Positions 1-12,147 are shown, counted from the first letter of the stretch. The stretch is 12,147 nt of DNA from Candidatus Bathyarchaeia archaeon (GCA_050014495.1 JBEKDF010000057.1:1-12147); one strand, 5' to 3'. A program made the numbers and translations. Notes: generated from the letters alone by a model not told the origin.

Positions 1-50
1 GCTGTGATGGGTGTGGGCTTGTTTTTGCTGTAAGTGAGTGGCTGAGTCAT
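1..50 (-). CDS. possible 5' end of a minus-strand gene running off the left edge (MTQPLTYSKNKPTPIT...)
   Basis: ATG at 50-48 (CAT on +), open to position 1. Only 16 codons are visible and no family is recognisable. Confidence 0.25.
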   Translation of the reverse strand, partial: MTQPLTYSKNKPTPIT

Positions 51-273
51 TTATGTGGTGGTTTTACTCTTTTGTTGGAGGGTTATTTGGGGGTGTCTAT
101 TTTAGGGACAAGCCAGCGCGCATTCGACTGGTTTATGGTAGACCTTTTCATCCACGTATGTGGTTAGGTTTATTCAAAATAAATAGGTATTCGCGTGGAT
201 TGGTAGGTCAAATTATATTTAGTTGCTTGTCGCAGACCCCAATCAGGGCTTGGAGTCACAGAAAACCCGGTGA

Positions 274-948
274 GTGTCCATAGAGGGCCTAGGAAGGATC
301 ATTTACGCGACCACCATGATTACCATCTTTGTATCAATTGCAGTCTACCTACTCATAGCCAACCAGATCATCAGTTCCCCAACGTCGATTTACAGCGTCA
401 GCTTCTCCGGTAATGCGACCCTGAAGGAGGGCGACCTCCTATTCACCTTCGAGCCCACGGTTATCCATGGATTAGGAGGCGACGCGCTCGACTTCAGGCT
501 CACCGCCACCAACTTGGGCAACGAGAATAGTACTTTTTACCATGGTGATCTTGAACCAACTGTGGAAGTCTACTCTGCCGGGACACGGGTCTCCACACTC
601 ACTAAAGCCCGAATCTCGGATACAATTATGTATGAACCTGTGGTGGAGCCCGGCAAAAATTACACGATTGGATGGACATGGAATTTGGATTCCTTCGCCA
701 GTAATCCTTTGAAGCCTGGTGTTTACAGTGTCTCCGCGAAGTGGGGCTCTGGTAAAACTTATACCAGTACTGAAGGGGTGGGGGTTATGATTGACTGGGA
801 GACGCCTGGGGTCCCAATGCAGGTATACTTTGGAGTCCAACCGTTGACTGTCACAGGTCTGATACTTACCGCGATCACCTTGACTCTGATCGTCTTATTA
901 TCCCGTCGAGCTCACGAATCACCAGTTTCTTATTTAAAATCAAAGTAA
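274..948 (+). CDS. membrane-anchored protein with an extracytoplasmic Ig-like beta-sandwich (BsuPI-like) domain
   Basis: 224-aa ORF with an N-terminal hydrophobic helix (IIYATTMITIFVSIAVYLLIA) and a C-terminal one (LTVTGLILTAITLTLIVLL). The centre pattern FRLTATNLG...VEVY...VEPGKNYTIGWTWN...LKPGVYSVSAKW resembles BsuPI/Ig-like domains. GTG start. Confidence 0.7.
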   Translation: MSIEGLGRIIYATTMITIFVSIAVYLLIANQIISSPTSIYSVSFSGNATLKEGDLLFTFEPTVIHGLGGDALDFRLTATNLGNENSTFYHGDLEPTVEVYSAGTRVSTLTKARISDTIMYEPVVEPGKNYTIGWTWNLDSFASNPLKPGVYSVSAKWGSGKTYTSTEGVGVMIDWETPGVPMQVYFGVQPLTVTGLILTAITLTLIVLLSRRAHESPVSYLKSK

Positions 949-970
949 ATTACAAATAAGGGGTAGATCT

Positions 971-1096
971 ATGGATAGGGATGCTGATGCAATTAAGAAC
1001 CTGAAGACTAATCGAAGCATGCTAATTGCCGGCATAACTCTTCTAATCATCGGAATTCTACCATTCTTCCTCGAAATACGCGCGCACTACATCTAA
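971..1096 (+). CDS. small single-TM membrane peptide or truncated membrane-protein gene (41 aa), absent from the ORF track
   Basis: ATG971...TAA1096 translates as MDRDADAIKNLKTNRSMLIAGITLLIIGILPFFLEIRAHYI. It has one clean ~18-aa hydrophobic helix after a charged N-terminus, begins 22 nt after the upstream stop, and follows purine-rich AAGGGGT. Confidence 0.5.
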   Translation: MDRDADAIKNLKTNRSMLIAGITLLIIGILPFFLEIRAHYI

Positions 1097-1148
1097 AGAA
1101 CTAAACGCGCACGATTTCACAAGATCGCTTGTTCTCCTTGTTAAAATG

Positions 1149-1173
1149 TTTAAATTTGTGGGATAATAAGGAG
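1149..1173 (+). promoter_or_regulatory. putative TATA box (TTTAAA 1149-1154) and Shine-Dalgarno (AGGAG 1169-1173) for the ADH-nitroreductase unit
   Basis: TTTAAA lies ~27 nt before ATG1181 and AGGAG lies 7 nt before it. Confidence 0.5.
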
Positions 1174-1180
1174 AAAACAG

Positions 1181-2209
1181 ATGATTTTTATGCCTCTTAT
1201 GAAGACGATTCAGGTTAGTGCTCCCGGAGCAGAATTCGAACTGGTCCAAAAAGAGATCCCCGAGCCAGGTGCCCATGAAGTTCTCTTAAAGGTTGAGGCC
1301 TGTGGGGTATGCCACGGGGATGCGATCGTAAAACAGGGACATTACCCAGGTTTGGAGTACCCGAGGACTCCAGGTCACGAAGTTGTCGGCACCATAGCTA
1401 AACTTGGCTCCAAGTCGGGATACTGGCAAACAGGTCAGAGGGTTAGCGTGGGTTGGCGGGGCGGATACTGCCTACGCTGCAGGTCTTGCCTGAGGGGGGA
1501 GTACTGGGCCTGTGAAAGCCCGCTGGCTACTGGAATCTCAACCGACGGTGGTTACGCGGAGTACATGTTAGCCCGCATGGAGGTCCTCACCGCCATACCC
1601 GATAAACTCAGCTCAGTCGAGGCCGCTCCCTTACTCTGCGCTGGTGCGACCGCCCTCGGCGCTCTGAAGAGCAGCTCCGCTAAGGGAGGCGATCTAATCG
1701 CGGTTCAAGGCTTCGGAGGATTGGGCCACCTGGCGCTGCAGTTCGCGGACAAGCTCGGACTGAAAACTGCAGTGATATCCCGCGGCAGAGAGAAGGAGGC
1801 GCTTGCCCGCGGGCTCGGCGCCCAGGTCTTCATCGACACAAACACCTCTAACGCTGCGGATGAACTGATGAAGCTCGGCGGGGCACGCGCCATCTTCTGC
1901 ACGGCCCCGAATAGCAGGGCCATCGCTGAACTCGTTGGCGGGCTCGCCCGTAATGGCCAACTGATCATAATAGCATTCTCTGATGAACCCATGCAGATCT
2001 CGCCTGCAATGCTGATGCGTGGGGTACGGTCCGTGAGCGGCTGGGTTGGGGGAAACACAGCCGACACGCTGAACTTCAGCGTCCAAACACACGTAGTGCC
2101 CCTGGTGGAGGTCTTCCCGCTTGAGCAGGCGGCGATCGCATACGAGAGGATGATGACCGCTAAGGTTCATTTCCGAGCGGTCCTGAAGGTGGGTGATGAT
2201 CAGCCATGA
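1181..2209 (+). CDS. zinc-dependent alcohol dehydrogenase (MDR superfamily, AdhP/CAD-like)
   Basis: Catalytic Zn motifs GVCHGD and PGHEVVG; structural Zn C-x2-C-x2-C-x7-C (CLRCRSCLRGEYWAC); APLLCAG; Rossmann GFGGLG; C-terminal FRAVL. The start could be ATG1190 or 1199. Confidence 0.95.
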   Translation: MIFMPLMKTIQVSAPGAEFELVQKEIPEPGAHEVLLKVEACGVCHGDAIVKQGHYPGLEYPRTPGHEVVGTIAKLGSKSGYWQTGQRVSVGWRGGYCLRCRSCLRGEYWACESPLATGISTDGGYAEYMLARMEVLTAIPDKLSSVEAAPLLCAGATALGALKSSSAKGGDLIAVQGFGGLGHLALQFADKLGLKTAVISRGREKEALARGLGAQVFIDTNTSNAADELMKLGGARAIFCTAPNSRAIAELVGGLARNGQLIIIAFSDEPMQISPAMLMRGVRSVSGWVGGNTADTLNFSVQTHVVPLVEVFPLEQAAIAYERMMTAKVHFRAVLKVGDDQP

Positions 2210-2919
2210 GTGATATATTGAGAACTATCCGGGAAAGACAATCTGTAAGAGCACCCTTCGATCCGAACCGACCAATGTCTAAGGAGGATCTGAAGCAGAT
2301 TCTGGAGGCGGCGAGCTGGGCGCCTACCGCACACAACATGCAGAACTTCGAAGTAGTGGTCGTCGACGACAAAGCGGTTCTGGAAAAGATAGGAAGCGTC
2401 AAGTCACGGATCTCGGAGGAGTTTCTACGTGAAAACTACGAGCAATTATCCTTCTCCAAGGAGGAATTGATGAAGAAGAAAACTGGGATTCTGGGTATTA
2501 TGTTCCCACCGGAGTGGGTAGATCCGGCGAAGATGGCGGAGATTGCCCGCGAAACCAAGCCTACCCCGATATTCCAGTCTATTCGGGGAAGCCCGACTCT
2601 CCTATTTGTGATATACGACTCGAGGAAGAGGGCACCAGCATCCCGGGGAGACGTTCTCGGCTTCATCAGCCTAGGCTGCGTCATGGAGAACATGTGGCTA
2701 ATGGCTCAGGCGCTGGGTGTCAGCCTCCAGATTCTAAGCTCCTTCTCCGCCCCCCCTGTGGAGATGAAAATAAAGAAAATCCTCGGCGTCCCCGAATACC
2801 TGGAGATAGCCTTCACCTGCCGCTTAGGGTATCCGAAGGAACCAGCCCCATACCTCAGAGTACGACGCGACGTTGAGGACTTCGTGCACCACAACAGGTT
2901 AGGAAAGAAGGGATTCTGA
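2206..2919 (+). CDS. nitroreductase family (FMN-dependent) protein
   Basis: FMN-binding RERQSVR and AASWAPTAHNMQ motifs; LGCVMENMWLMAQALGV; RLGYP. ATGA overlap with the ADH stop indicates translational coupling. Confidence 0.93.
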   Translation: MSDILRTIRERQSVRAPFDPNRPMSKEDLKQILEAASWAPTAHNMQNFEVVVVDDKAVLEKIGSVKSRISEEFLRENYEQLSFSKEELMKKKTGILGIMFPPEWVDPAKMAEIARETKPTPIFQSIRGSPTLLFVIYDSRKRAPASRGDVLGFISLGCVMENMWLMAQALGVSLQILSSFSAPPVEMKIKKILGVPEYLEIAFTCRLGYPKEPAPYLRVRRDVEDFVHHNRLGKKGF

Positions 2920-3058
2920 GGAATAGCGCATATAGCGTGCCATCGGGGAGTTATTCCGGGCATCTCGTCGCCTTTGATGCCGTAGCCTCCTAAACCCCTC
3001 CTTCAATCGGCGTCCGCTGTGGTAGCGCGCGCAGTAGATTCTTTAATAGTCCCTACTG

Positions 3059-3325
3059 TTGGGTAACCTGTGTGTCAATTTGAGTAGTAATTTGAGAAAA
3101 TTTACGCTAGAAGAGCTGAAACACTACGATGGCCAAAACGGGAAGCCGGCATACATTGCCTATAAGGGAAAAGTGTACGATGTCACCGACAATTACACCT
3201 GGGGGGATGGGAAACACTACGGTGAACATCAGGCGGGACAAGACATCACCGAAGGAATGTCTGACGCCCCGCATGGAGAAGATAAGCTCGAAACAACAAT
3301 TCTAGTCGGTGAAATCACCGACTAA
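3059..3325 (+). CDS. cytochrome b5-like heme/steroid-binding domain protein
   Basis: FTLEELKHYDG...AYIAYKGKVYDVT...W..GKHYGEHQAGQDIT...APHG is the prokaryotic b5-like signature with candidate His ligands. The true start is probably TTG3080 or TTG3092, given the TATA-like TTTAATA at 3042-3048. Confidence 0.92.
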   Translation: MGNLCVNLSSNLRKFTLEELKHYDGQNGKPAYIAYKGKVYDVTDNYTWGDGKHYGEHQAGQDITEGMSDAPHGEDKLETTILVGEITD

Positions 3326-3390
3326 AACATCCTCACGATCCTGCATATAGTGCGTGTTCCACCTGAGAAGTCTGGGATTTCGCGCCAGGT

Positions 3391-3855
3391 TCACTCATCT
3401 AATCTCGCCCCAAGCTCCTCCGCCCAAGCCTCAACATTGGATACGCCAGTGGGGGACTCGAAGGTGCGACCAAATATCTTGAACCTGCCTCCGAGCAAAG
3501 TAGATGCTACGAGCTTAAGATTTGGGCGCTTCTCCAACGTCTTCTTTATGTATTTCTCCTCGGCTAAGGGTCGAGCCTTCTCATCAACCTCCATCGTCGA
3601 GATGAAGAAGGCAACCTTCCTGTCCCCAAAGTCATGATCCAGAAACTTAAGAGCCTCCCCGTAGATTCTCCCAGCCCTCACGCCGCCGCCGACAACGATG
3701 TTCCGGTACTTGGATACATCGGGTTTATGGTTCTTACGGAGGTCGACAACATCTACCTCCAGTCCATATTTCTCCTTCAGTACACGCGCAATTGTGTTCG
3801 CCGACTCCCTTGTGACGCCTCCCCTCGTGGAGTATGCGATTAGTGTCTTAGCCAA
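3391..3855 (-). CDS. flavodoxin-domain protein (HemG-like / Flavodoxin_5 type)
   Basis: N-terminal phosphate loop IAYSTRGGVTRESA; VVGGGVRAGR; KVAFF; C-terminal VEAWAEEL. TTG start with GTGAAGGT upstream. Confidence 0.88.
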   Translation of the reverse strand: MAKTLIAYSTRGGVTRESANTIARVLKEKYGLEVDVVDLRKNHKPDVSKYRNIVVGGGVRAGRIYGEALKFLDHDFGDRKVAFFISTMEVDEKARPLAEEKYIKKTLEKRPNLKLVASTLLGGRFKIFGRTFESPTGVSNVEAWAEELGARLDE

Positions 3856-4005
3856 TGACCTTCACTGAGGCTCAGGCGGCTCTAAGCTATTTGATTGTTG
3901 TTTCACCTAATTTTCCCACATATCCGTTAGGGTGCGTGTTTAATCTTCATTTAGATGTGCGCTTGTCCGTAGAGCATTCTCACCGCGTTGGATTCTTCGC
4001 CTATC

Positions 4006-5241
4006 TCATACTTTTACCCGATTACGCGGCTCGGGAACAAATACCTGTATGAACCCCAGCGTCACCACGCAGAAGGCCGCCGCCAAGTAGAAGACCAAGT
4101 TGAATCCATAGGCGTCGATTATGAAGCCACTGAAGAGGCTACCTAAAGTTGAGCTCTGCTGAGAGATCGCGGATTGGATACCCAGCCCGAACCCACGCAT
4201 CGACGGACTTAGGAGGTCCGCCATCAACGTAGTCATAGCGGTCATCGTCAGGGCCCAGGTTATACCATATAATAAATTGAGGGCGACCATCCAGAGGAAG
4301 CCCCCGGGGATAGTAAACCCAATGAGATCAATGATGCTCAAGAAGACGCCGAGAAGGACCGCAATCTTACTACCCGACTTATCCACGAGTATCCCCGCGA
4401 GGGGTGAGAAGATGATAGTGGTCAGGGCCCTCGTAGCGAACACGTAGCTCACCTGGGATAGGTCGATGTGGATGACATCCTCCAAGAAGAGGCTCATGAA
4501 GGGGTCAATCATCGTGAGACCCGTCCTGTAAATTAGGACAGCCACGAGGAAAACGCCGACGACGACTCCGAGGCCTCTAACAGATTTTATGAAGCCGGGC
4601 ACATCGATTTTGAAGCCCTTGGAAGCGTTCTTCTCGGAGAGCATCTTCTCCTTCTGCAGCGTCTCCTTAACGAATATCAACATCATAACCGCGCTGACGG
4701 CGACGAAGCCACCTGAGAAGAGGAAGTAGGTAGAGTAGTCGTTTCCGTTGATAAGGAGCGGCGATATCAGGGGGCCGATCAGGGAGCCTATACCGCCTGC
4801 AGCACTAAATAGGCCCATCGCTTTGCCTCTTTCACCAGGCGGGAAGATGTCGGCCGCCATGGTGGTCACCATCACCGGCATGATGTAGAAACCGATGCCC
4901 GCGATGAACCTCGAGATCATGAGTGCGCTGAAGCTGTTACCGACGGAATTAAAGATGAAGAAGACAATCGTGTATAATAGAGTCCCTAGAACAAGTATTT
5001 TCTTGCGACCAAATCGATTGGACAGTAGGCCAGCGGCTACACTGCTCAGGATCCCCGCGAACGTTCCAATGGAGATTAGTAGCCCGCTCTCACCCTTGGT
5101 CAAGCCGATGGCGGCGAAGAACAGTGGGAAGACCATGTAGATGGTTGACGCGGTTATCTGCATGGAGATGGTGGAGATGATGATGAAGTAGTAGTTCCTT
5201 CTCTGTTGAGGGGATACAGTTGTTTCACCCATGAGATACAT
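4006..5241 (-). CDS. major facilitator superfamily (MFS) transporter
   Basis: 411 aa with about 12 hydrophobic segments in two halves; motif A GLLSNRFGRK and its repeat GILVDKSGSK; RFIAGIG; ERGKAMG...GSLIGPLI. The start may be ATG5232. Confidence 0.95.
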   Translation of the reverse strand: MYLMGETTVSPQQRRNYYFIIISTISMQITASTIYMVFPLFFAAIGLTKGESGLLISIGTFAGILSSVAAGLLSNRFGRKKILVLGTLLYTIVFFIFNSVGNSFSALMISRFIAGIGFYIMPVMVTTMAADIFPPGERGKAMGLFSAAGGIGSLIGPLISPLLINGNDYSTYFLFSGGFVAVSAVMMLIFVKETLQKEKMLSEKNASKGFKIDVPGFIKSVRGLGVVVGVFLVAVLIYRTGLTMIDPFMSLFLEDVIHIDLSQVSYVFATRALTTIIFSPLAGILVDKSGSKIAVLLGVFLSIIDLIGFTIPGGFLWMVALNLLYGITWALTMTAMTTLMADLLSPSMRGFGLGIQSAISQQSSTLGSLFSGFIIDAYGFNLVFYLAAAFCVVTLGFIQVFVPEPRNRVKV

Positions 5242-5272
5242 CCTAGCTACAATGAGATAGGAACGGCAGTGC

Positions 5273-5329
5273 TCAATGATGATATTAATTTTTCGTCAAA
5301 GAACAAATTGAAGTAAATATCATCATTGA
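5273..5329. promoter_or_regulatory. perfect 14-bp inverted repeat (TCAATGATGATATT / AATATCATCATTGA, 29-nt spacer) in the divergent MFS-ridA promoter region
   Basis: 5273-5286 and 5316-5329 are exact reverse complements. Each arm overlaps an outward-facing TATA-like element (minus: CGAAAAATTAATA; plus: GAAGTAAATA). Confidence 0.7.
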
Positions 5330-5413
5330 ATAAATTCAAGATCTTCGAGGGGCGTAGCTTCCGTGCTCAGGAATTATCATTAATGCGTGAGCTGGATTAG
5401 TAGAAGGATAGAA

Positions 5414-5770
5414 ATGACTGAACTGAAAAGAGTCACCACCCCTATAGCTACTCAAAGGCGGTCGCTGTGGGAGACCTCATATTCCTCGGACTACACCGTG
5501 GCAATAGTGACGACTTCATTAAACAATTCGATGATGCCATGAGAAACGTAGCTGAGACACTAGCAAAATTCAATCTCCCGCTGACCAATCTCACAAAAGT
5601 GAAATATATGGCTTAGAAACATCAACGATCTCCCTGAGATAGAAAAGCGTTTCAATAACTACTTTGATAAGGATGCGTTCCCCGCGAGGATGACATCTAC
5701 GACAGAGTTCATCAATAAAGACTGCCTTCTAATGATTGATGGCGTAGCTTATCGAAAGCAGACATCCTAG
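5414..5770 (+). pseudogene. RidA/YjgF/UK114-family protein interrupted by two compensating single-base frameshifts (pseudogene or sequencing error)
   Basis: Adding one base at CCCC 5439-5442 and removing one A at 5602-5604 gives a 118-aa protein: MTELKRVTTPYSYSKAVAVGDLIFLGLHRG...LTKVNIWLRNINDLPEIEKRFNNYFDKDAFPARMTSTTEFINKDCLLMIDGVAYRKQTS. It has the Rid motifs YS.AV..GD..F, KV.I.L, F...FPAR and the terminal .IDGVA. SD-like AAGGA upstream. As read, stops fall at 5540-5542 and 5614-5616. Confidence 0.85.
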
Positions 5771-5847
5771 TCACTTCCATTATCCATCTTACCCTCTGTT
5801 TCCCAGTAACGACGCTGGTGTGCGCGCGCTATTCACGATGTGCACGC

Positions 5848-5870
5848 CTTGATTCTCAAATGAATCATGT
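5848..5870. repeat. dyad site copy A: CTTGATTCT-CAAAT-GAATCATGT
   Basis: 19/23 identical direct repeat of 6545-6567; core palindrome TGATTC-N6-GAATCA; lies 35 nt beyond the HTH-CBS stop codon. Confidence 0.75.
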
Positions 5871-5905
5871 AATGTTGCGCATGCGCATCACGGCCCGCTG
5901 CGAGC

Positions 5906-6565
5906 CTAATTCACAATCAGCTTCAACAAATCCGACCTCGTGATGATGCCCCTCACCTCCCCCAAATCGCTCCTAAGCAAGATAGCGTAGAAATGGACCA
6001 ACATCTGAGCGACAACGATCAACGACTCATCATCCGGGCAATCCACAATACCTTCGATCAACCCAGAGTCCCGAATCAGTATCGACCTTATCTTAGAACG
6101 ATCTTCACAAAGAGGCTCCCTGGGAGATGGCAGAAGCATCTTCAGAATCCCTAAATCAGTCACCACACCAATCCAATTACCATTGGCCCTGCTCTTAATC
6201 GGAATCTGACTGAAACCAGGCCCCATCATCTTAACAACCAGCCCACCAATCGACTCATCATCGTAAGCGAAAACCAGATCCTCACCAGTCGTCGCATAAT
6301 CAATTGCTCTCAAATCAGTTGGAATCAGAGACCTCTTCTGTAGAAGATACTGAACAATTTTCTGCACCTCATTATACTTGAATTCCCTACCAACCTTTAG
6401 GCTCCTAGATATGAGTGGCTGAGGAATGTCTAACTCATCCTCCAAACTTCGCTGAGATATCCCCAACTCACGCATCTTCTCATCGATAAGCTTCGTAAGT
6501 TTTTCTTCCGGAATTAATGGGAATAATTCCTCCATAATCATCATCTTGATTCTATCAAGAATCAT
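5906..6565 (-). CDS. transcriptional regulator with N-terminal XRE/Cro-type HTH and a C-terminal CBS-domain pair (archaeal COG3620-like architecture)
   Basis: HTH: KMRELGISQRSLEDELDIPQPLISRSL. CBS1: LVFAYDDESIGGLVVKMMGPGFSQIPI...WIGVVTDLGIL. CBS2: PDDESLIVVAQML...VRGIITRSDLLK. The true start is more likely ATG6544, 6541 or 6535. Confidence 0.88.
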   Translation of the reverse strand: MILDRIKMMIMEELFPLIPEEKLTKLIDEKMRELGISQRSLEDELDIPQPLISRSLKVGREFKYNEVQKIVQYLLQKRSLIPTDLRAIDYATTGEDLVFAYDDESIGGLVVKMMGPGFSQIPIKSRANGNWIGVVTDLGILKMLLPSPREPLCEDRSKIRSILIRDSGLIEGIVDCPDDESLIVVAQMLVHFYAILLRSDLGEVRGIITRSDLLKLIVN

Positions 6566-6567
6566 GT
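6545..6567. promoter_or_regulatory. dyad site copy B: CTTGATTCT-ATCAA-GAATCATGT, candidate autoregulatory operator
   Basis: Contains TGATTCT-N4-AGAATCA and an overlapping TCTTGAT-N3-ATCAAGA (6544-6560). It sits between a minus-strand TATA-like TAATAT (6574-6569) and the probable HTH-CBS start codons. Confidence 0.7.
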
Positions 6568-6613
6568 GATATTAGAGTATTACCTCAAGCATCATTCATA
6601 AGAGTGAGGAGCA

Positions 6614-7108
6614 ATGTACGAAGGAAAAAGTGACAAGACTCCGAAGAATGATACTGATCTCAAACTGATAGCATCCACCCTCAGAGTTTACCTAGAGAAG
6701 CTAGACAGGGAGATCAAGAACATCGAGGTGTTCATCCCTGAGAAACAGGACCGTAACCCACGGAAACACGAACTCGCCCAAGCCGAGGGCATCAGGTACG
6801 CCGCCCGAGAGCTGTTGAAGGTCCTAGGAATGAAGACTACCTGGCTCGAAGAGACCCAGATGGCAGAGAAGCAGTCGAAGGGCTACAACAACTTCAGCTA
6901 CGACGATCCAGACGGCACATTCTATTTCGGCTACTTCAAGAGCAAGAAAGCCTTCGTAGATGCCTACCTAGGGGAGACGGGTAACTGGGGCAGCAGGAGC
7001 GAGAGAGGTTGGGTGAACGAGCGCGTTGGCACATTCGATGAGGGCAAGTACGGCGTGGAAGCCTGGGTGAACTTAGAGAAGCTCTGCAAGAAGGAACTGC
7101 TGGAGTGA
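6614..7108 (+). CDS. hypothetical protein (164 aa), first gene of an operon divergent from the HTH-CBS regulator
   Basis: Strong SD GTGAGGAG at 6604-6611; protein-like composition; GTGA overlap with the next gene. No family recognised. Confidence 0.75.
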   Translation: MYEGKSDKTPKNDTDLKLIASTLRVYLEKLDREIKNIEVFIPEKQDRNPRKHELAQAEGIRYAARELLKVLGMKTTWLEETQMAEKQSKGYNNFSYDDPDGTFYFGYFKSKKAFVDAYLGETGNWGSRSERGWVNERVGTFDEGKYGVEAWVNLEKLCKKELLE

Positions 7109-7446
7109 GCTCCGATATGAACACTAAAAAACGTGCACACGCAATTGACGAGCCAAAATATGCCCGTGCTTATCGAATAACAAATCCGAGTGACCGTAGG
7201 AAAGTCACTGTATACACGGCGAAGTGGTGTGATGTTTGCAAGAAGCAGGTGCCGATGATACAGACGTTAGCCCAGATGTACGGTTTTACCGTTGAATTAG
7301 TCGACGTCGACAGCGAGGATCTGGATGTACAGAAGAGGGCCCAGTACATCCGGTTTGTGCCATATATTGAGTACCTTGGACTTGAGATCAGCTTCAGCGA
7401 ACTGATGGATGTAATCAAAGAAACAGGGGGAGCAGGCGTTGGATAG
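7105..7446 (+). CDS. thioredoxin/glutaredoxin-fold protein (WCDVC)
   Basis: KVTVYTAKWCDVCKK is a beta1-CxxC-helix; ELVDVD is beta2; IRFVPYI is the cis-Pro loop. Overlaps both neighbours. The start could be ATG7117. Confidence 0.85.
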   Translation: MSSDMNTKKRAHAIDEPKYARAYRITNPSDRRKVTVYTAKWCDVCKKQVPMIQTLAQMYGFTVELVDVDSEDLDVQKRAQYIRFVPYIEYLGLEISFSELMDVIKETGGAGVG

Positions 7447-7828
7447 AATCGAAATACTGCTTGATGTCCTCGAGGCAAACGGATTCCCTAGTATTAGATC
7501 GAAGATGCGAGAAAGGGAGGACGAGCTCATGAGAGGCGCCACGTTTAGGAATATTCTAAATGCAGAGGAGATAGAGGTTGTCAGGAAGGTACTAAGAGAG
7601 TTCAAAGTTCCAAGTCCAACTGGCTGGGCACACGCAATGATGGTTCACGGAATGCGCCAGGACATCGAGAGATTCTCAGAGGACAATGTCTACGATTATA
7701 CGGAACTCTGTAACCTCAGCTTCACTCTTAGAGAAGCTGGTTTGGCGGACAAGGAAACCTGGCGCAAAATCGAGAACGCTAAAAATTCAATGAAAAAATA
7801 CACGCACGCAACTTGGAGGGATTCTTGA
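7439..7828 (+). CDS. hypothetical protein (129 aa, probably alpha-helical)
   Basis: TTG start overlapping the thioredoxin stop, preceded by GGGGGAG; charged helical composition. No family recognised. Confidence 0.7.
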   Translation: MDRIEILLDVLEANGFPSIRSKMREREDELMRGATFRNILNAEEIEVVRKVLREFKVPSPTGWAHAMMVHGMRQDIERFSEDNVYDYTELCNLSFTLREAGLADKETWRKIENAKNSMKKYTHATWRDS

Positions 7829-7898
7829 TGAGCGCTTGGGGATAAATCAGAAATAATTCGAAATTTGTTTGATACAACATTAGGCTGCGCGCACTTGG

Positions 7899-8246
7899 CT
7901 AGTCTTCCTTGTCATCTTCCAAGTACTCGACCTCATCACCCGCCTCGAGGGCGAAGTTCATATGAGCCATGCTTGCACCCGCGTTCAGGGCCGCAGAGAT
8001 GGCGATGACCTCAGCAAGCTCCTCCTTCGTTGCACCCGCCGCCAACGCCCTCTTAGAATGAGCCTCGATGCAGTATGGGCACCTCGTTATGTAGGTGGCT
8101 GCGACCGCGCAGAGCTCCTTCGTCTTCACGTCGAGCCTACCAGGCTCGAACACCTTCTCATCGAAAGCGCCGAAGGCCTTCAGAACGTCTTGGTTGAAGT
8201 ATTTCGCTACCTCAGCTTTCCTCTTCTTTGCATAATAATATGCCAT
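7899..8246 (-). CDS. carboxymuconolactone decarboxylase / AhpD-like alkylhydroperoxidase family protein
   Basis: LDVKTKELCAVAATYITRCPYCIEAHSKRALAAGATKEELAEVI matches the AhpD core (E...CxxC...H...GAT.EE). TATA-like TTTTAAT on the minus strand at 8278-8272, ~26 nt upstream, suggests a leaderless transcript. Confidence 0.93.
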   Translation of the reverse strand: MAYYYAKKRKAEVAKYFNQDVLKAFGAFDEKVFEPGRLDVKTKELCAVAATYITRCPYCIEAHSKRALAAGATKEELAEVIAISAALNAGASMAHMNFALEAGDEVEYLEDDKED

Positions 8247-8536
8247 AGACTAGCATCACACCAAATACTTCATTAAAACCTGTCGGTCCGATAGACTCCG
8301 TTCAGCTCCGAGCGTTAAGTGATTAGTCTTCGAGGAGTCGAGCGGATTTGTTCACCCGCGCTTAGCATAGAAACTTGCAAGCGCAAGACCATTATATGGT
8401 TAAAGAAAAGCGCGTCAGCTCAACCAGTTTTTCACATCATCCTCTCCAACTCAGCAATGGGCTCACCAAGCCCTCATGATTGATTGAAAGACTCTATAGA
8501 CAGTTCACCTATCCTTAAACCAGGAGACTTGGAGGT

Positions 8537-9397
8537 TTGGAAAATCTAATCATAACCGCGGCCGTAACAGGCGGGGAGTACGTCTCGAGGGAGGACACAC
8601 CATACGTTCCCAAGACGGTCGATGAGGTGGTGGCGGAGGTGGTGAGAAGCGTAGAGGCGGGGGCATCGATGGTGCACCTCCACGCCAAGAACCCCGAATC
8701 GGGGGAGGCCTACTCCGGGGATCCGAACCCCGTCCTCAGGGAGTACATCGAGAGGATCCGCGAGCGAGTCGACGTTGTGATCAACGTCACCACAGGAGGA
8801 GGCAGGGTGGGGAACCCCGTGGAGGTTTGGGATCGACTCGTGAAGGAGAAGTGCAGGCTCGGAGAGGAGATGATGAGCCTCAACATGGGCACCATCAACA
8901 GGTGGGCTGAACACCCCACAGGCGACGTCTTCCTTAACACCGTACCCATGATCGAACGCTGGTGCGGATACATGCGTGACGCCGGGGTGAAGCCGGAGCA
9001 CGAGGTCTACGACACCGGCATGATAAACACCTGCAGACAGATCGCCGAGAAGAAGATACTGATCGACCCTCTTCACATCCAGTTCGTCATGGTGGGTAGA
9101 ACCGGCTTCCTTCCGACGATGAAGACGCTCATCTACAGCCTGGACCAGATCCCGCAGACCTGGACCTGGAGCGTCTGCGCCTTGGGGAGGAACGAGATAC
9201 CCATGTGCACCGCCGCGATGATCCAGGGGGGCCACGTCAGAGTCGGCTTCGAAGACAACATCTTCATCCGCAAGGGAGAGCACGCGAAGAGCAACGCCGA
9301 CCTCGTCAGGAAAATGGTAAACATCGCCAAGGAGCTCGAGAGACCCATAGCCGACCCTAGCGAAACGAGGAGGATCCTCGGCCTGAAAAAGGTCTAA
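8537..9397 (+). CDS. beta-keto acid cleavage enzyme (BKACE / DUF849; 3-keto-5-aminohexanoate cleavage enzyme family)
   Basis: LIITAAVTGGE...P.T.DE....V.S.EAGASMVHLH (Zn ligands HxH); TTGG; SLNMGTIN; KPEHEVYD.G; GGHVRVGFEDN (Arg/Glu/Asp); SNADLV; TRRILGL. TTG start with AGGAG upstream. Confidence 0.95.
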   Translation: MENLIITAAVTGGEYVSREDTPYVPKTVDEVVAEVVRSVEAGASMVHLHAKNPESGEAYSGDPNPVLREYIERIRERVDVVINVTTGGGRVGNPVEVWDRLVKEKCRLGEEMMSLNMGTINRWAEHPTGDVFLNTVPMIERWCGYMRDAGVKPEHEVYDTGMINTCRQIAEKKILIDPLHIQFVMVGRTGFLPTMKTLIYSLDQIPQTWTWSVCALGRNEIPMCTAAMIQGGHVRVGFEDNIFIRKGEHAKSNADLVRKMVNIAKELERPIADPSETRRILGLKKV

Positions 9398-9412
9398 GCA
9401 TAACCAAGGAGA

Positions 9413-10375
9413 GTGCACGAGGTAATCGAAGGAATCAGGCGGATCGCCTGCGTCGGAAGTGGACTAGTGGGACAAGGATGGGCGGCACTCTTCGCACTGT
9501 CGGGGTACCAAGTCACCCTCGAGGACGTGCGTGAGGAACAACTAGACGAAGCTCTCAGGCGAGTCGAGAGGCAGATGAACTTCCTAGAGTCATCCGGACT
9601 CGCAAGCAGCGCGGATAAAGCCCTCAGACGCCTAAGGAAAACGACGAGCCTAAGCGAAGCGGTGACCGGAGCCGACTACGTCCAGGAATCAGTCTACGAG
9701 AGCTACGCAGCGAAGAAGGAGGTCTACGGCGAGATGGATGAAGCCGCGGAACCCGAAGCAATCCTTGCAAGCAGCAGCTCAGGCCTAATGATGAGTGAGA
9801 TACAGAAGGCCGCCAAGCGCCACCCCGAGCGATGCATAGTCGCCCACCCATGGAACCCGTCCTACCTCGTCCCACTCGTAGAGCTCTCACCGGGTGAACA
9901 AACCTCCCCCAACACCACCAAAAGAACCTACAAGCTCATGGAGGACATAGGCAAGGTACCCGTCGTGCTGAGGAAGGAAGTGCCCGGCTTCATAGCAAAC
10001 AGGCTCTCATCCGCCCTCTGGAGGGAAGCCCTAAACCTAGTGGACACCGGAGTCGCCTCAGCCGAGGATGTCGATAAGGCCATCGTGAACGGACCTGGCC
10101 TCAGGTGGGCAATCATGGGACCCTACCTGACATACCACCTCGGAGGTGGGAAGGGCGGCATCGAGTACCTGATGCGGCACATAGACGTCTCCAAAGCCAA
10201 GTGGCTCGAGACCATGGCCAAATGGACCGAGACCCCAGAGTCAGCTGTCGAGAAGGCCGTCGAAGGCGTCCACGAGATGGATCTGGTCAGGGAGCACAGC
10301 TACGAGGAGCTCGAGGACTGGAGGGACAAGTCCATGGTCGATATCCTAAAGTCCCGCAGGAAACCATCCACCTGA
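9413..10375 (+). CDS. 3-hydroxyacyl-CoA dehydrogenase superfamily, lambda-crystallin (L-gulonate 3-dehydrogenase) / L-carnitine dehydrogenase-like branch
   Basis: GSGLVGQGWA; YVQESVYE; ILASSSSG; catalytic HPWNP..L.PLVE; GFIANRL..ALWREA..LV..GVAS.EDVD.AI..GPGLRWA.MGP.LTYHLGGG. Starts 15 nt after BKACE, with SD AAGGAG. Confidence 0.9.
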   Translation: MHEVIEGIRRIACVGSGLVGQGWAALFALSGYQVTLEDVREEQLDEALRRVERQMNFLESSGLASSADKALRRLRKTTSLSEAVTGADYVQESVYESYAAKKEVYGEMDEAAEPEAILASSSSGLMMSEIQKAAKRHPERCIVAHPWNPSYLVPLVELSPGEQTSPNTTKRTYKLMEDIGKVPVVLRKEVPGFIANRLSSALWREALNLVDTGVASAEDVDKAIVNGPGLRWAIMGPYLTYHLGGGKGGIEYLMRHIDVSKAKWLETMAKWTETPESAVEKAVEGVHEMDLVREHSYEELEDWRDKSMVDILKSRRKPST

Positions 10376-10388
10376 TCTGTCCATTTGC

Positions 10389-11285
10389 TCACGGCTCAAG
10401 AAAATCTTTATCCAAATACCTAGGCTCAGGATAGGAGTAGAACCCTCGACCCGACTTCACCCCCAGGTCCCCCCTCTCGATCCTCTCCAACAGAAGCCGA
10501 GGCGGCGCATCCCTAACGTCACGCGACTCACCATAATAGACGTTCTCGATGTCCCTAACCACATCGAGGCCCACCCTATCCATCAGCCCAAAGGGCCCTA
10601 CCTCAGTCCCATAGAAGCACATCCAGGCCCGATCAACATCCTCGAAGGACGCGACCCCATCGTCAACGAGGTGCAAGCACTCCCTTTTGACAGCACGCCA
10701 CACCCTGTTGAAGATGAAGCCCGTACTCTCCTTCCTGACTACCAGCGGGACCATCCCGATGGACCTCATAAAGTCGCTCACACGCGTCAGGGTCGCCTCA
10801 GAGGTTCTGGTCCCCCTCATGAGTTCTACGACCCTGCTCCTCCAGGGGAAAGAGTAGAAGTGTGTGTTTAAAACAAGGTCAGGCCTCTTCGTTGCATCCT
10901 CGATCAACGACACCCGGATCGATGAGCTGTTTGTGGTAAGAATAGTACCTGGGTCACAAAGGGTGTCCAGATCGGCAAAGACCTTCCTCTTTAAGTCGAG
11001 TCTCTCCGGTACCGCCTCGATGACAAGTTCTACCCCCTCGATGGCCTTGGCTGGGTCCGTTTCAACATTAATGTGTTTAATAGCGGATTCCTTCTCAACG
11101 ATTGAAGCCTCCCCAGCCTCAACCCACGAGTCAAGTTTCCTCGAGATGTTCGACGAAGCATTCTCCAGGGCCTCTGTCGAGATATCATATAGATTGGTCG
11201 GACGGCCATGACTCGCGCATTGTAGTGCGATCTGCCAGCCGAGAGTACCAGCTCCGAAGACGCAGACGCGCTCCAGAATACCCAT
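10389..11285 (-). CDS. 3-hydroxyacyl-CoA (3-hydroxybutyryl-CoA) dehydrogenase family protein
   Basis: GAGTLGWQIA; LVIEAVPE.L.LK..VF; TNSSS; THFYSFPW...VVE; KES.GFIFNR; EDVDRAW...GPF.LMD.VGLD; G.LG.KSG.GFY. I prefer ATG11285 to TTG11303 because TATA-like TTTATC lies at 11312-11307 on the minus strand. Confidence 0.92.
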   Translation of the reverse strand: MGILERVCVFGAGTLGWQIALQCASHGRPTNLYDISTEALENASSNISRKLDSWVEAGEASIVEKESAIKHINVETDPAKAIEGVELVIEAVPERLDLKRKVFADLDTLCDPGTILTTNSSSIRVSLIEDATKRPDLVLNTHFYSFPWRSRVVELMRGTRTSEATLTRVSDFMRSIGMVPLVVRKESTGFIFNRVWRAVKRECLHLVDDGVASFEDVDRAWMCFYGTEVGPFGLMDRVGLDVVRDIENVYYGESRDVRDAPPRLLLERIERGDLGVKSGRGFYSYPEPRYLDKDFLEP

Positions 11286-11405
11286 GGCGATAAAGAGGCT
11301 CAACTAGATAAAGTCATAGCCCCAAAAAAAGCATCCATGGACCGTACAGAGCCCATACTCTTGCCGCGCGCGCGGATTTTGCTGATCTTAACCATCATCA
11401 GGCGA

Positions 11406-11421
11406 TTTATCACTTGATAAA
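11406..11421. promoter_or_regulatory. perfect 7-2-7 palindrome TTTATCA-CT-TGATAAA in the divergent intergenic region
   Basis: Exact dyad, extendable by AGGC (11400-11403) / GCCT (11422-11425) with a 2-nt bulge. Confidence 0.45.
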
Positions 11422-11539
11422 GCCTAGGCACAAACTGCGAGGGGAGGGAGGCGTGAAAGAGGGCGCATCGCGTGCACATAAAGGAATACTAGGATTTGAA
11501 AACATAAAACCCTTAATCCCGAACTCGCCTCTAGGCTCC

Positions 11540-11941
11540 GTGGACATTCCCACCATCAGCCTCATTACGCAATTCGCCATCCTCGCTCTCCTCCTCTACG
11601 GTTACGCGCTCTTCAGAAAGGGAAACCTTGCTAGACATGGACAAGTTCTCTTAGCCGCTGTCGCCATACACACGACCGCCATCCTCGCTATCATGCTCCC
11701 CCTTTTCCTCGCCTCCCCCACAAGCTACGTCCCAAACCTAACGACGCTCATGGGGCTCGGCAACATCACCCACATAGTATCCGGGACGATAGCAGAGATT
11801 CTCGCCGTCTACATTGTCATCAGGTGGATCCGCAACCGCCTCAACCCAAGCGGCTGCAGGGGTAAACTCATCATGAGAGCCACAATGATCCTCTGGCTCA
11901 TCTCTCTCCTCACAGGTCTCGGCACCTACTTCATCTATTAA
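11540..11941 (+). CDS. DUF420-like four-helix membrane protein
   Basis: Four hydrophobic helices with His in ARHG and THIVSG, as in DUF420/YozB-like proteins. The real start is probably GTG11540 (MDIPTISL), with BRE/TATA-like AAAACCCTTAAT at 11506-11517. The 11414-11539 extension looks non-coding. Confidence 0.75.
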   Translation: MDIPTISLITQFAILALLLYGYALFRKGNLARHGQVLLAAVAIHTTAILAIMLPLFLASPTSYVPNLTTLMGLGNITHIVSGTIAEILAVYIVIRWIRNRLNPSGCRGKLIMRATMILWLISLLTGLGTYFIY

Positions 11942-11964
11942 CCCGTTCGCGCGCGCCATCTAGT

Positions 11965-11987: not shown

Positions 11988-12033
11988 GTCGTCGTATCGT
12001 GTATATGTGGGGGATAAGGCTATGGCCCCAGTC

Positions 12034-12105
12034 CTTTCGCCCCAAATGGAACATTCAATAAATCTTTAAAGATAGTGATATTCTGCAGTCTTTTAGGGGC
12101 GAAAG
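12034..12105. repeat. 10-bp perfect inverted repeat CTTTCGCCCC / GGGGCGAAAG enclosing an AT-rich spacer with the palindrome ATCTTTAAAGAT (12062-12073)
   Basis: Arms at 12034-12043 and 12096-12105, 52-nt spacer, palindrome nearly centred. Confidence 0.65.
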
Positions 12106-12147
12106 TTTTAGTCGTTAGGTTCTATGGTTCTTTTGTCGTGGTTATAT

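Follow-up and report, generated by a model that had tools for sequence, protein, structure and literature searches.

Alternating GC tracts between the genes of a Bathyarchaeia archaeon as probable scars of DNA end rejoining

The locus and its tracts

The stretch of DNA considered here (the window) is the entire contig C57, 12,147 nucleotides long, of a Candidatus Bathyarchaeia genome (G000; 3.1 Mb in 92 contigs), and the subject of this study is a set of short alternating (GC)n tracts between its genes, which are read below as probable scars of DNA end rejoining. Most of the sequencing runs in which the window occurs are metagenomes of peat. Its gene content is made up of unrelated modules, namely ADH, nitroreductase, cytochrome b5, flavodoxin, MFS, CBS, thioredoxin-like, CMD, BKACE, two 3HCDH and DUF420 genes, and these modules are dispersed across different contigs in relatives.

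An earlier note on this DNA, made from the sequence alone, described the hexamer GCGCGC as a punctuation signal that marks gene boundaries and avoids genes. All seven loci listed there were found again in their places (Table 1), together with the related motifs ACGCGCACG at 1105, GTGCGTGT at 3350 and 3932, TGCGCATGCGCAT at 5876 and GCGCGT at 8410. It was also right that genes cover most of the window (83%) and are at least as GC-rich as the spacers (52.9% versus 45.8% GC). The window contains 11 overlapping matches of GCGCGC, compared with 2.02 ± 1.52 in 200 dinucleotide shuffles, none of which reached 11. Six of the seven tracts are intergenic and the seventh lies in a short open reading frame (sORF) of 41 aa, but the avoidance of genes is not absolute genome-wide, and the related motifs GCGCGT and GTGCGTGT, correctly placed in spacers, occur inside genes too (7021; 7807 on the minus strand). 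The supposed common continuation GCGCGCA(C/G)TA is not general: only a weak A(-2)/T(-1) bias was seen over the genome, and there is no consensus in the flanks.

Table 1. Tracts, break points and associated features of the window, in positions counted from its first nucleotide
Feature	Position	Strand	Setting
Right end of a ~1.3-kb DDE insertion sequence	1..115	+	Contig begins here; identical to ends of contigs C28, C78, C81 and C88
GCGCGC	116..121		Adjoins the insertion-sequence end; target site of the insertion sequence
41-aa sORF	971..1096	+	Likely what is left of the N-terminal part of a membrane-protein gene severed at the tract
CGCGCGC	1079..1085		Where sORF homology has ended; likely truncation scar
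Degenerate tract ACGCGCACG	1105..1113		Module boundary
GCGCGCGC	3025..3032		Upstream of the cytochrome-b5 gene; older joint
Break point	3067		Contig of run X14 joins other DNA via a new (GC)n tract absent from the window; loose end, one contig
Two deletions in the flavodoxin gene of run X14	3471..3802		Sealed with new (GC)n letters
GCGCGCGC	5822..5829		Spacer behind the small frame 5467-5616; spanned by X14 contig
Degenerate tract TGCGCATGCGCAT	5876..5888		Module boundary
GCGCGC	7887..7892		Between convergent genes, 6 bases beyond the CMD-family stop; spanned by X14 contig
(CG)5	11365..11374		Between divergent 3HCDH and DUF420 genes; inside a 12-bp palindrome starting at 11364
CGCGCGCGC	11948..11956		6 bases beyond the DUF420 stop

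Tracts at joints and the letters that are new there

Among the possibilities raised by the earlier note was that unrelated pieces of DNA had been joined at the tracts, and this option was borne out by truncated homologies, by deletion joints in run X14 and by events with two recognizable parents. Within the window, residues 1-34 of the sORF are 47% identical to the N-terminus (first 37 residues) of a 186-aa paralogue on contig C22; the homology stops just short of the tract, which begins at codon 37. Break points of synteny also fall beside the degenerate tracts: the block that the window has in common with runs X17 and X21 starts at 1116, and another in common with X21 starts at 5874, in each case with other DNA before it in the runs. 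In the related genome G016, the ADH-nitroreductase module begins at the equivalent of position 1147, immediately behind a tract of that genome's own, and the same DUF420 gene, located at another place, is likewise followed by a tract, but the distance from the stop differs from that in the window. Further homology to G016 (89%) begins at 3035, where that genome has no tract, and the tract at 3025..3032 falls within the block that the window has in common with X17. The CMD gene sits in other surroundings in relatives. No homologue ending at the tract 5822..5829 was found, and no parent sequence either for this tract or for that at 11365..11374.

The same coincidence was seen on the scale of whole genomes. 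Of 587 tracts of at least 7 bp away from insertion sequences (IS), 108 lie within 300 bp of a protein homology that is truncated, and the ends of these homologies are concentrated in the two 15-bp bins at the tract (51 ends, versus 2.3 per bin in the other 36 bins, i.e., about 11-fold). In G101, which belongs to another family, 24 ends were counted in the two central bins versus about 2 per interior bin, the outermost bins being raised by query-edge effects. Ends of internal repeats lie near a tract in 99 of 577 cases, compared with 2.9% of random spacer positions, and where short fragments are duplicated (C32, C13, C7), tracts bracket the captured copy only.

Joints of this kind were also seen in the strain of run X14, which is about 98% identical to the window. 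Its flavodoxin gene, corresponding to 3391-3855 on the minus strand, has lost two pieces: the deletion from 3471 to 3543 is sealed with 14 new letters led by (GC)4, and that from 3573 to 3802 with 6 new letters, (CG)3. These letters occur on neither side of the joints, and the intact gene of the window has no tract at either break, so that new (GC)n is present at both of the two X14 deletion joints found at 94% likeness. Of the longer filler, the tail was found once beside another tract, which is about the chance level. Nitroreductase joints were ignored in this comparison of runs as belonging to other organisms, and it was made without X22-X24, which have small shares.

Parents of other tracts were sought within the genomes. 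A homologue of at least 85% identity was available for 45 tract sides, some of these rows being the two members of one pair; in 31 the homologue has no tract and in 14 it has one. The 31 tract-less homologues share 0 (11 cases), 1 (12), 2 (7) or 5 (1) of the tract letters, and one pair is 99.5% identical. Joints with two visible parents gave 37 rows, which reduce to 11 events and, after removal of a long duplication beside an IS and a common tract that had been mis-projected, to 9 usable ones. Seven of the nine have no tract in either parent, although two of these seven rest on identities below 80%. One of the seven is a 455-bp deletion inside an IS transposase, with a tract that all 15 intact copies lack. 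On C3, an intact gene has a 12-bp tract in place of 9 bp, and the frame is kept. Thus, going beyond the earlier note, formation of the tract at the joint itself is the usual case, as opposed to a site that was there beforehand. Copying of the flank by snap-back (fold-back) synthesis was rejected as a source, the left and right flanks being no more palindromic beyond the core than shuffled pairs.

The tracts share with the junctional filler of end joining their place at joints of deletions or rearrangements. In our opinion, the comparisons of sequence make it probable that the tracts at deletion, truncation and capture joints are such filler, mostly absent from both parents and written while DNA ends were being rejoined.

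Abundance and length of the tracts bear on other explanations of their origin. Genes were called with a dicodon model (3308 genes, 82% coding). GCGCGC is the most over-represented hexamer of the genome (observed/expected 1.75), and its 958 loci comprise 701 intergenic, 256 coding and 1 edge case; the density is 15.8 times higher outside genes, though spacers are GC-poorer. The contrast expected by the earlier note is therefore real as an excess in spacers, but it is partly due to depletion within coding DNA, where 223 six-base tracts were found versus 401 after synonymous-codon shuffling. Maximal alternating tracts of 6, 7, 8, 9 and 10 bp number 258, 147, 175, 124 and 92 in spacers versus 57, 10, 2.4, 0.2 and 0.2 in shuffled sequence, followed by only 4 at 11 bp; length 4 is not enriched (1366 versus 1287). 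The spectrum of G101 again peaks at 6-10 bp and then falls, from 82 at 10 bp to 14 at 11 bp. Tracts of 8 bp are preferentially framed as G..C (134 versus 41 in this genome and 123 versus 5 in G101). Against synonymous-codon shuffles, coding DNA is depleted in tracts of 5-7 bp and enriched in those of 9-12 bp, and of 44 coding tracts of at least 9 bp, 20 lie within the last 25 codons, where 8.8 are expected.

Microsatellites grown by slippage, or by local mutational bias in unconstrained DNA, would also be dinucleotide repeats of spacers and dead genes, and 20 of the 31 parents do give one or two matching letters, compared with about 41% by chance. Parental seeds of 0-2 letters are, however, too short for slippage. 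The lengths show no excess at 4, a plateau at 6-10 and a cliff at 11 instead of a smooth fall, (AT)n, (AC)n, (AG)n and runs of G or C are only weakly enriched, and the tracts coincide with break points; this explanation is very improbable and already largely refuted. Even less credit can be given to a highly iterated palindrome like HIP1, arising from methylation-directed repair at a methyltransferase site. The HIP1 of cyanobacteria has a fixed length and is common in coding DNA; the tracts resemble it as abundant short palindromes with hundreds of copies and a lineage-specific identity (GC or, as described below, TAGC), but they vary in length, avoid intact genes, are depleted from coding DNA at 5-7 bp and arise at deletion joints, not by point mutation.

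The earlier note preferred a selected signal, i.e., a site for a chromatin or termination protein or a Z-DNA element absorbing supercoils. A strong intergenic bias agrees with this, as do a mild excess 10-30 bp past stops and a higher tract density in convergent spacers (1.82 per kb) than in divergent (1.12) and tandem (1.07) ones; alternating GC is generally under-represented in prokaryotes (PMC4060949), and its excess therefore calls for a cause. In contrast, no consensus in the flanks and no fixed spacing were found: the distances form broad humps only, 10-30 bp past stops and 50-70 bp ahead of starts, and all three types of spacer carry tracts. Homologous modules have tracts at different offsets or none, and collinear spacers are few, only 1 of 443 tracts being spanned by a relative's locus, in which the orthologue has no tract. 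Tracts also stand inside broken genes and a broken transposase. Degenerate copies differ mostly by transitions, as expected of ageing tracts. Two genomes of the same genus have a single GCGCGCGC each, and the alternative unit (TAGC)n is not a Z-former. Scans for sigma-70 promoters and hairpin terminators, models that do not fit archaea, remained at the chance level. Neither Z-DNA nor a terminator nor a protein site thus found support; a selected signal has little probability, and the tracts are less likely to control genes than to be scars of repair.

Insertion sequence, other lineages and neighbouring elements

G016 has a full element whose right end is 96% identical to the first 115 nucleotides of the window and whose transposase matches PF01609. 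Elements of this group are about 1.1-1.3 kb long; they end in inverted repeats and duplicate a target of some 4-8 bp (4, 6 or 8 fit different copies). In this they resemble the PF01609 DDE insertion sequences of IS4/IS5/IS1182 type; the ISH1 entries in the accessible part of PMC7002104 gave no family assignment.

It was considered whether all tracts are targets, duplications and footprints of this family, with insertion, adjacent deletion and excision leaving (GC)n at joints. GCGCGC precedes 51 of the 59 ends of the group in the genome, the site at 116..121 among them, and other copies run into different flanks beyond the tract. Elements from other families, and from hosts poor in tracts, likewise adjoin GCGCGC, although their transposases are only 44% identical. 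With one query, the element was found in 18 of 40 genomes chosen as tract-rich and in 5 of 36 chosen as tract-poor. However, of the 700 intergenic tracts of this genome no more than 53 adjoin an IS end. In G101 the figure is 0 of 504, and neither beside tracts nor at 528 scaffold-gap ends was a repeated element found there. The query gave no match in 22 of the 40 rich genomes, including G015 (20 contigs, 92%) and G139 (30 contigs, 96%), although metagenome-assembled genomes (MAGs) can lose IS. Copies in G114 with only 0-2 internal differences are flanked by unlike sequences, which means that the tract is target DNA and is not carried by the element. Since the flank comes from the target, an IS cannot bring a tract to a tract-less site, yet seven of nine two-parent joints and both X14 joints had no tract before. 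Finally, joining two IS-side tracts would yield 12-20 bp, a length that is almost absent. An origin of the tracts from the IS is consequently unlikely, real though the association of the two is.

The tract beside an IS end is mostly missing from alignable orthologues, and one copy of the IS in G016 is located where 420 bp of the gene have been lost. The IS therefore lands in scars and, as judged from these alignments, appears to ride on the tracts rather than to make them.

Two further observations concern this element. In G000, G002, G011, G012 and G016, the ends of differing variants of it directly adjoin, with no tract between, a second repeated element of about 1.3 kb (L021:2446-2520; in G000, C48:5777-7101 and C17), which looks like a specific second target or part of a composite element. 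At window position 121, one contig of run X11 links the right end of the IS through (GC)4 to another IS end and may represent two elements in tandem, the junction of a circle or an artefact of assembly.

The taxonomic distribution of the tracts is patchy. Of 17 other genomes in the genus, 15 contain GCGCGCGC 40-402 times, and the two that have a single copy are low-GC members. At least 75 copies, the threshold taken here for a tract-rich genome, were counted in 37 of 251 genomes of the class, spread over several families; these genomes are related and incomplete MAGs, and the tallies are descriptive. In samples of ten tract-rich genomes, tracts were mostly intergenic in eight, at 35-58% GC, while 0 and 1 tracts were counted in the remaining two, whose samples were short. 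Tract-rich genomes span about 40-58% GC, a sample with 61% GC had none, and the wide range led to rejection of GC content as the cause.

Some lineages have a different unit. In the spacers of G101, of which 1.62 Mb (82%) was analysed, TAGCTAGC occurs 134 times versus 5.6 expected, and it is present in 163-510 copies in six genomes of three other families (G132, G137, G083, G101, G044 and G126); G137 and G044 have almost no GCGCGCGC. Both (GC)n and (TAGC)n are self-complementary, but only (GC)n alternates purines and pyrimidines. Four break points at the DNA level are the examples of (TAGC)n as a scar, and its equivalence to (GC)n is best regarded as a lead from sequence. Another octamer, CGATCGAT, used as a control, reached 87-131 copies per strand in G040, G094, G134 and G221, all of one genus, versus 1-9 for TAGCTAGC; it may be a third self-complementary unit or an effect of GC content.

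Several elements of the window lie apart from the main subject. The small frame 5467-5616 (region 5413-5770) resembles a piece of a frameshifted gene and has no Pfam match; in run X14, positions 5438 and 5602 have indels of one base. A spacer segment of about 60 bp (11410-11468) is 83-88% identical to segments of G016, G013 and G002 in other gene contexts, and contigs C37 and C66 begin with similar sequence, as in a dispersed element. A second dispersed motif is located at 12008-12030; its core GATAAGGCTA (12013-12022) has 126 matches in the genome, often within a context of about 28 bp. Contig C6 has window positions 12026-12147 in common with it, and at the right end of the window a 20-bp piece of the motif is inverted relative to the copy that begins C6. 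This motif may be the recombination site of an integrative or cassette system.

A possible mechanism, its writer and its meaning

The likeliest scheme for the formation of the tracts builds on features that are observed directly, namely their position at joints, the new letters, the length spectrum, the G..C framing and the flanks of the IS. Once DNA had been broken and resected, an activity of the polymerase or primase type would add a short alternating tail starting with G, or the same activity would supply a linker of (GC)n no longer than about 10 bases. As (GC)n is self-complementary, such tails could anneal to each other, and ligation of any two ends would need no homology. A tail of more than about 10 bases would fold into a hairpin, which by computation is first stable at 10-12 bases, and this may be what caps the length. 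Selection would remove joints from needed genes and promoters and the survivors would remain just outside, so that the tracts would come to look like punctuation. Scars that have aged decay by transitions, and the DDE insertion-sequence family uses tracts as targets.

Fillers are well known from end joining: N-nucleotides are added by TdT and Pol mu, LigD polymerases make non-templated additions, and Pol theta makes templated insertions. The tracts resemble them as new letters at deletion joints with 0-2 bases matching the parents, but differ in being one stereotyped self-complementary repeat of 6-10 bp and not a random, single-base or flank-copied sequence, which suggests a variant of junctional filler. 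No published account of such scars was found for Bathyarchaeia with GCGCGC or for archaeal non-templated or palindromic junctions in the open main texts covered.

Three described systems are of interest for comparison. Methanocella paludicola's NHEJ (non-homologous end joining), with Ku, Pol, PE and Lig (PMC4797286), has a counterpart here in a full stand-alone operon on C3 (63436-67463, L083) encoding a LigD Pol (TIGR02778), Ku (TIGR02772), a ligase and a phosphoesterase, but tracts do not co-occur with Ku across the 251 genomes; strand displacement and microhomology synapsis are among the activities given for that system in the accessible part of the paper, and repeat writing is not (PMC4797286). 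Microhomology-mediated end joining in Haloferax volcanii (PMC12281630) likewise repairs archaeal deletions without long homology. Its joints have microhomologies of more than 2 and fewer than 50 nt, and the word 'insertion' is absent from the main text of that report, whereas the tract joints gain letters and 30 of 31 tract-less parents share 0-2 letters. A precedent for an enzyme that writes an alternating repeat without a nucleic-acid template is DRT3, an anti-phage reverse transcriptase with protein-templated dinucleotide-repeat synthesis, described as making free poly(GT/AC) in the available parts of two papers (PMC13174585, PMC13314766); unlike in that system, no PF00078 match was obtained here in five genomes searched.

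A number of findings weigh against the view that the tracts are filler. No tested enzyme family tracks the tracts across Bathyarchaeia genomes. Ku/LigD fitted perfectly among 31 relatives and failed across 251 genomes, Ku being present in 14 of 37 rich versus 47 of 214 other genomes (61 in total); outside the genus, 3 of the 25 rich genomes have it. PolX was found in 22 of 37 rich versus 62 of 214 other genomes (84 of 251), tract-poor kin included, and an alignment of 27 PolX sequences has one weakly separating column. PolB types are present in rich and poor genomes alike, PolY was not found in G000, G015 or G101, and the five genomes without a reverse transcriptase match include three tract-rich ones. 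Of two extra PriS-like primases in G000, that at C20:26047-27366 was rejected with only 6 of 251 genomes having it. Apart from the enzymes, four of the seven tracts in the window have no parent demonstrating that the tract is new, and most tracts have one visible parent or none. Both flavodoxin joints of X14 are on one contig with a depth of 3.4. The homologue has a tract too in 14 of the 45 comparisons, and two of the nine two-parent events had a tract, or part of it, beforehand. Many joints have no tract, as the 99 of 577 repeat ends indicate, the IS is commoner in the chosen-rich genomes, and the truncation test for (TAGC)n alone was negative (2 versus 2.4 expected; 32 informative of 201).

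Other candidates were compared as well. Nucleotidyltransferases of the Pol-beta type were rejected, being present in tract-poor genomes too; a 577-aa member occurs in both G000 and G101. The nucleotidyltransferase of about 570 aa at C76:3859-5574 (L185), a possible candidate, corresponds to a homologue in G101 that is split, and the PF01909 matches of G001, G109 and G184 include no counterpart of it. The second PriS-like primase (C53:7058-7864) lies near a gene resembling a tyrosine recombinase, and no counterpart of it was found in the 82% of G101 that was read. A motif screen of 651 reciprocal best matches between G000 and G101 gave no clear candidate. G101 is an N-joined scaffold set, with 267 gaps in the part read, and its lack of Ku and IS is therefore weaker evidence. 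Possible writers are a core enzyme that behaves differently from lineage to lineage and a member of a family other than those compared.

How archaea without Ku rejoin broken DNA and acquire unrelated genes is poorly known, and Bathyarchaeia are among the most abundant archaeal groups of sediments. A stereotyped filler would be a readable record of about 700 events of repair or capture in one genome, provided with a decay clock. It implies a DNA-writing activity with a sequence preference and no obvious template, and the tract counts in 251 genomes define which of them should hold the gene of the writer. If such an enzyme does make any two ends compatible, it would be a useful tool for cloning. 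More tentatively, and with rather less confidence than in the filler itself, a Ku-independent end joining of Bathyarchaeia may be proposed, in which an enzyme would write a fixed repeat that is its own complement, either (GC)n or (TAGC)n depending on the lineage, on any free end; such universal sticky ends would drive gene loss, capture and the shuffling of modules, and an IS family would have evolved to land on the scars.

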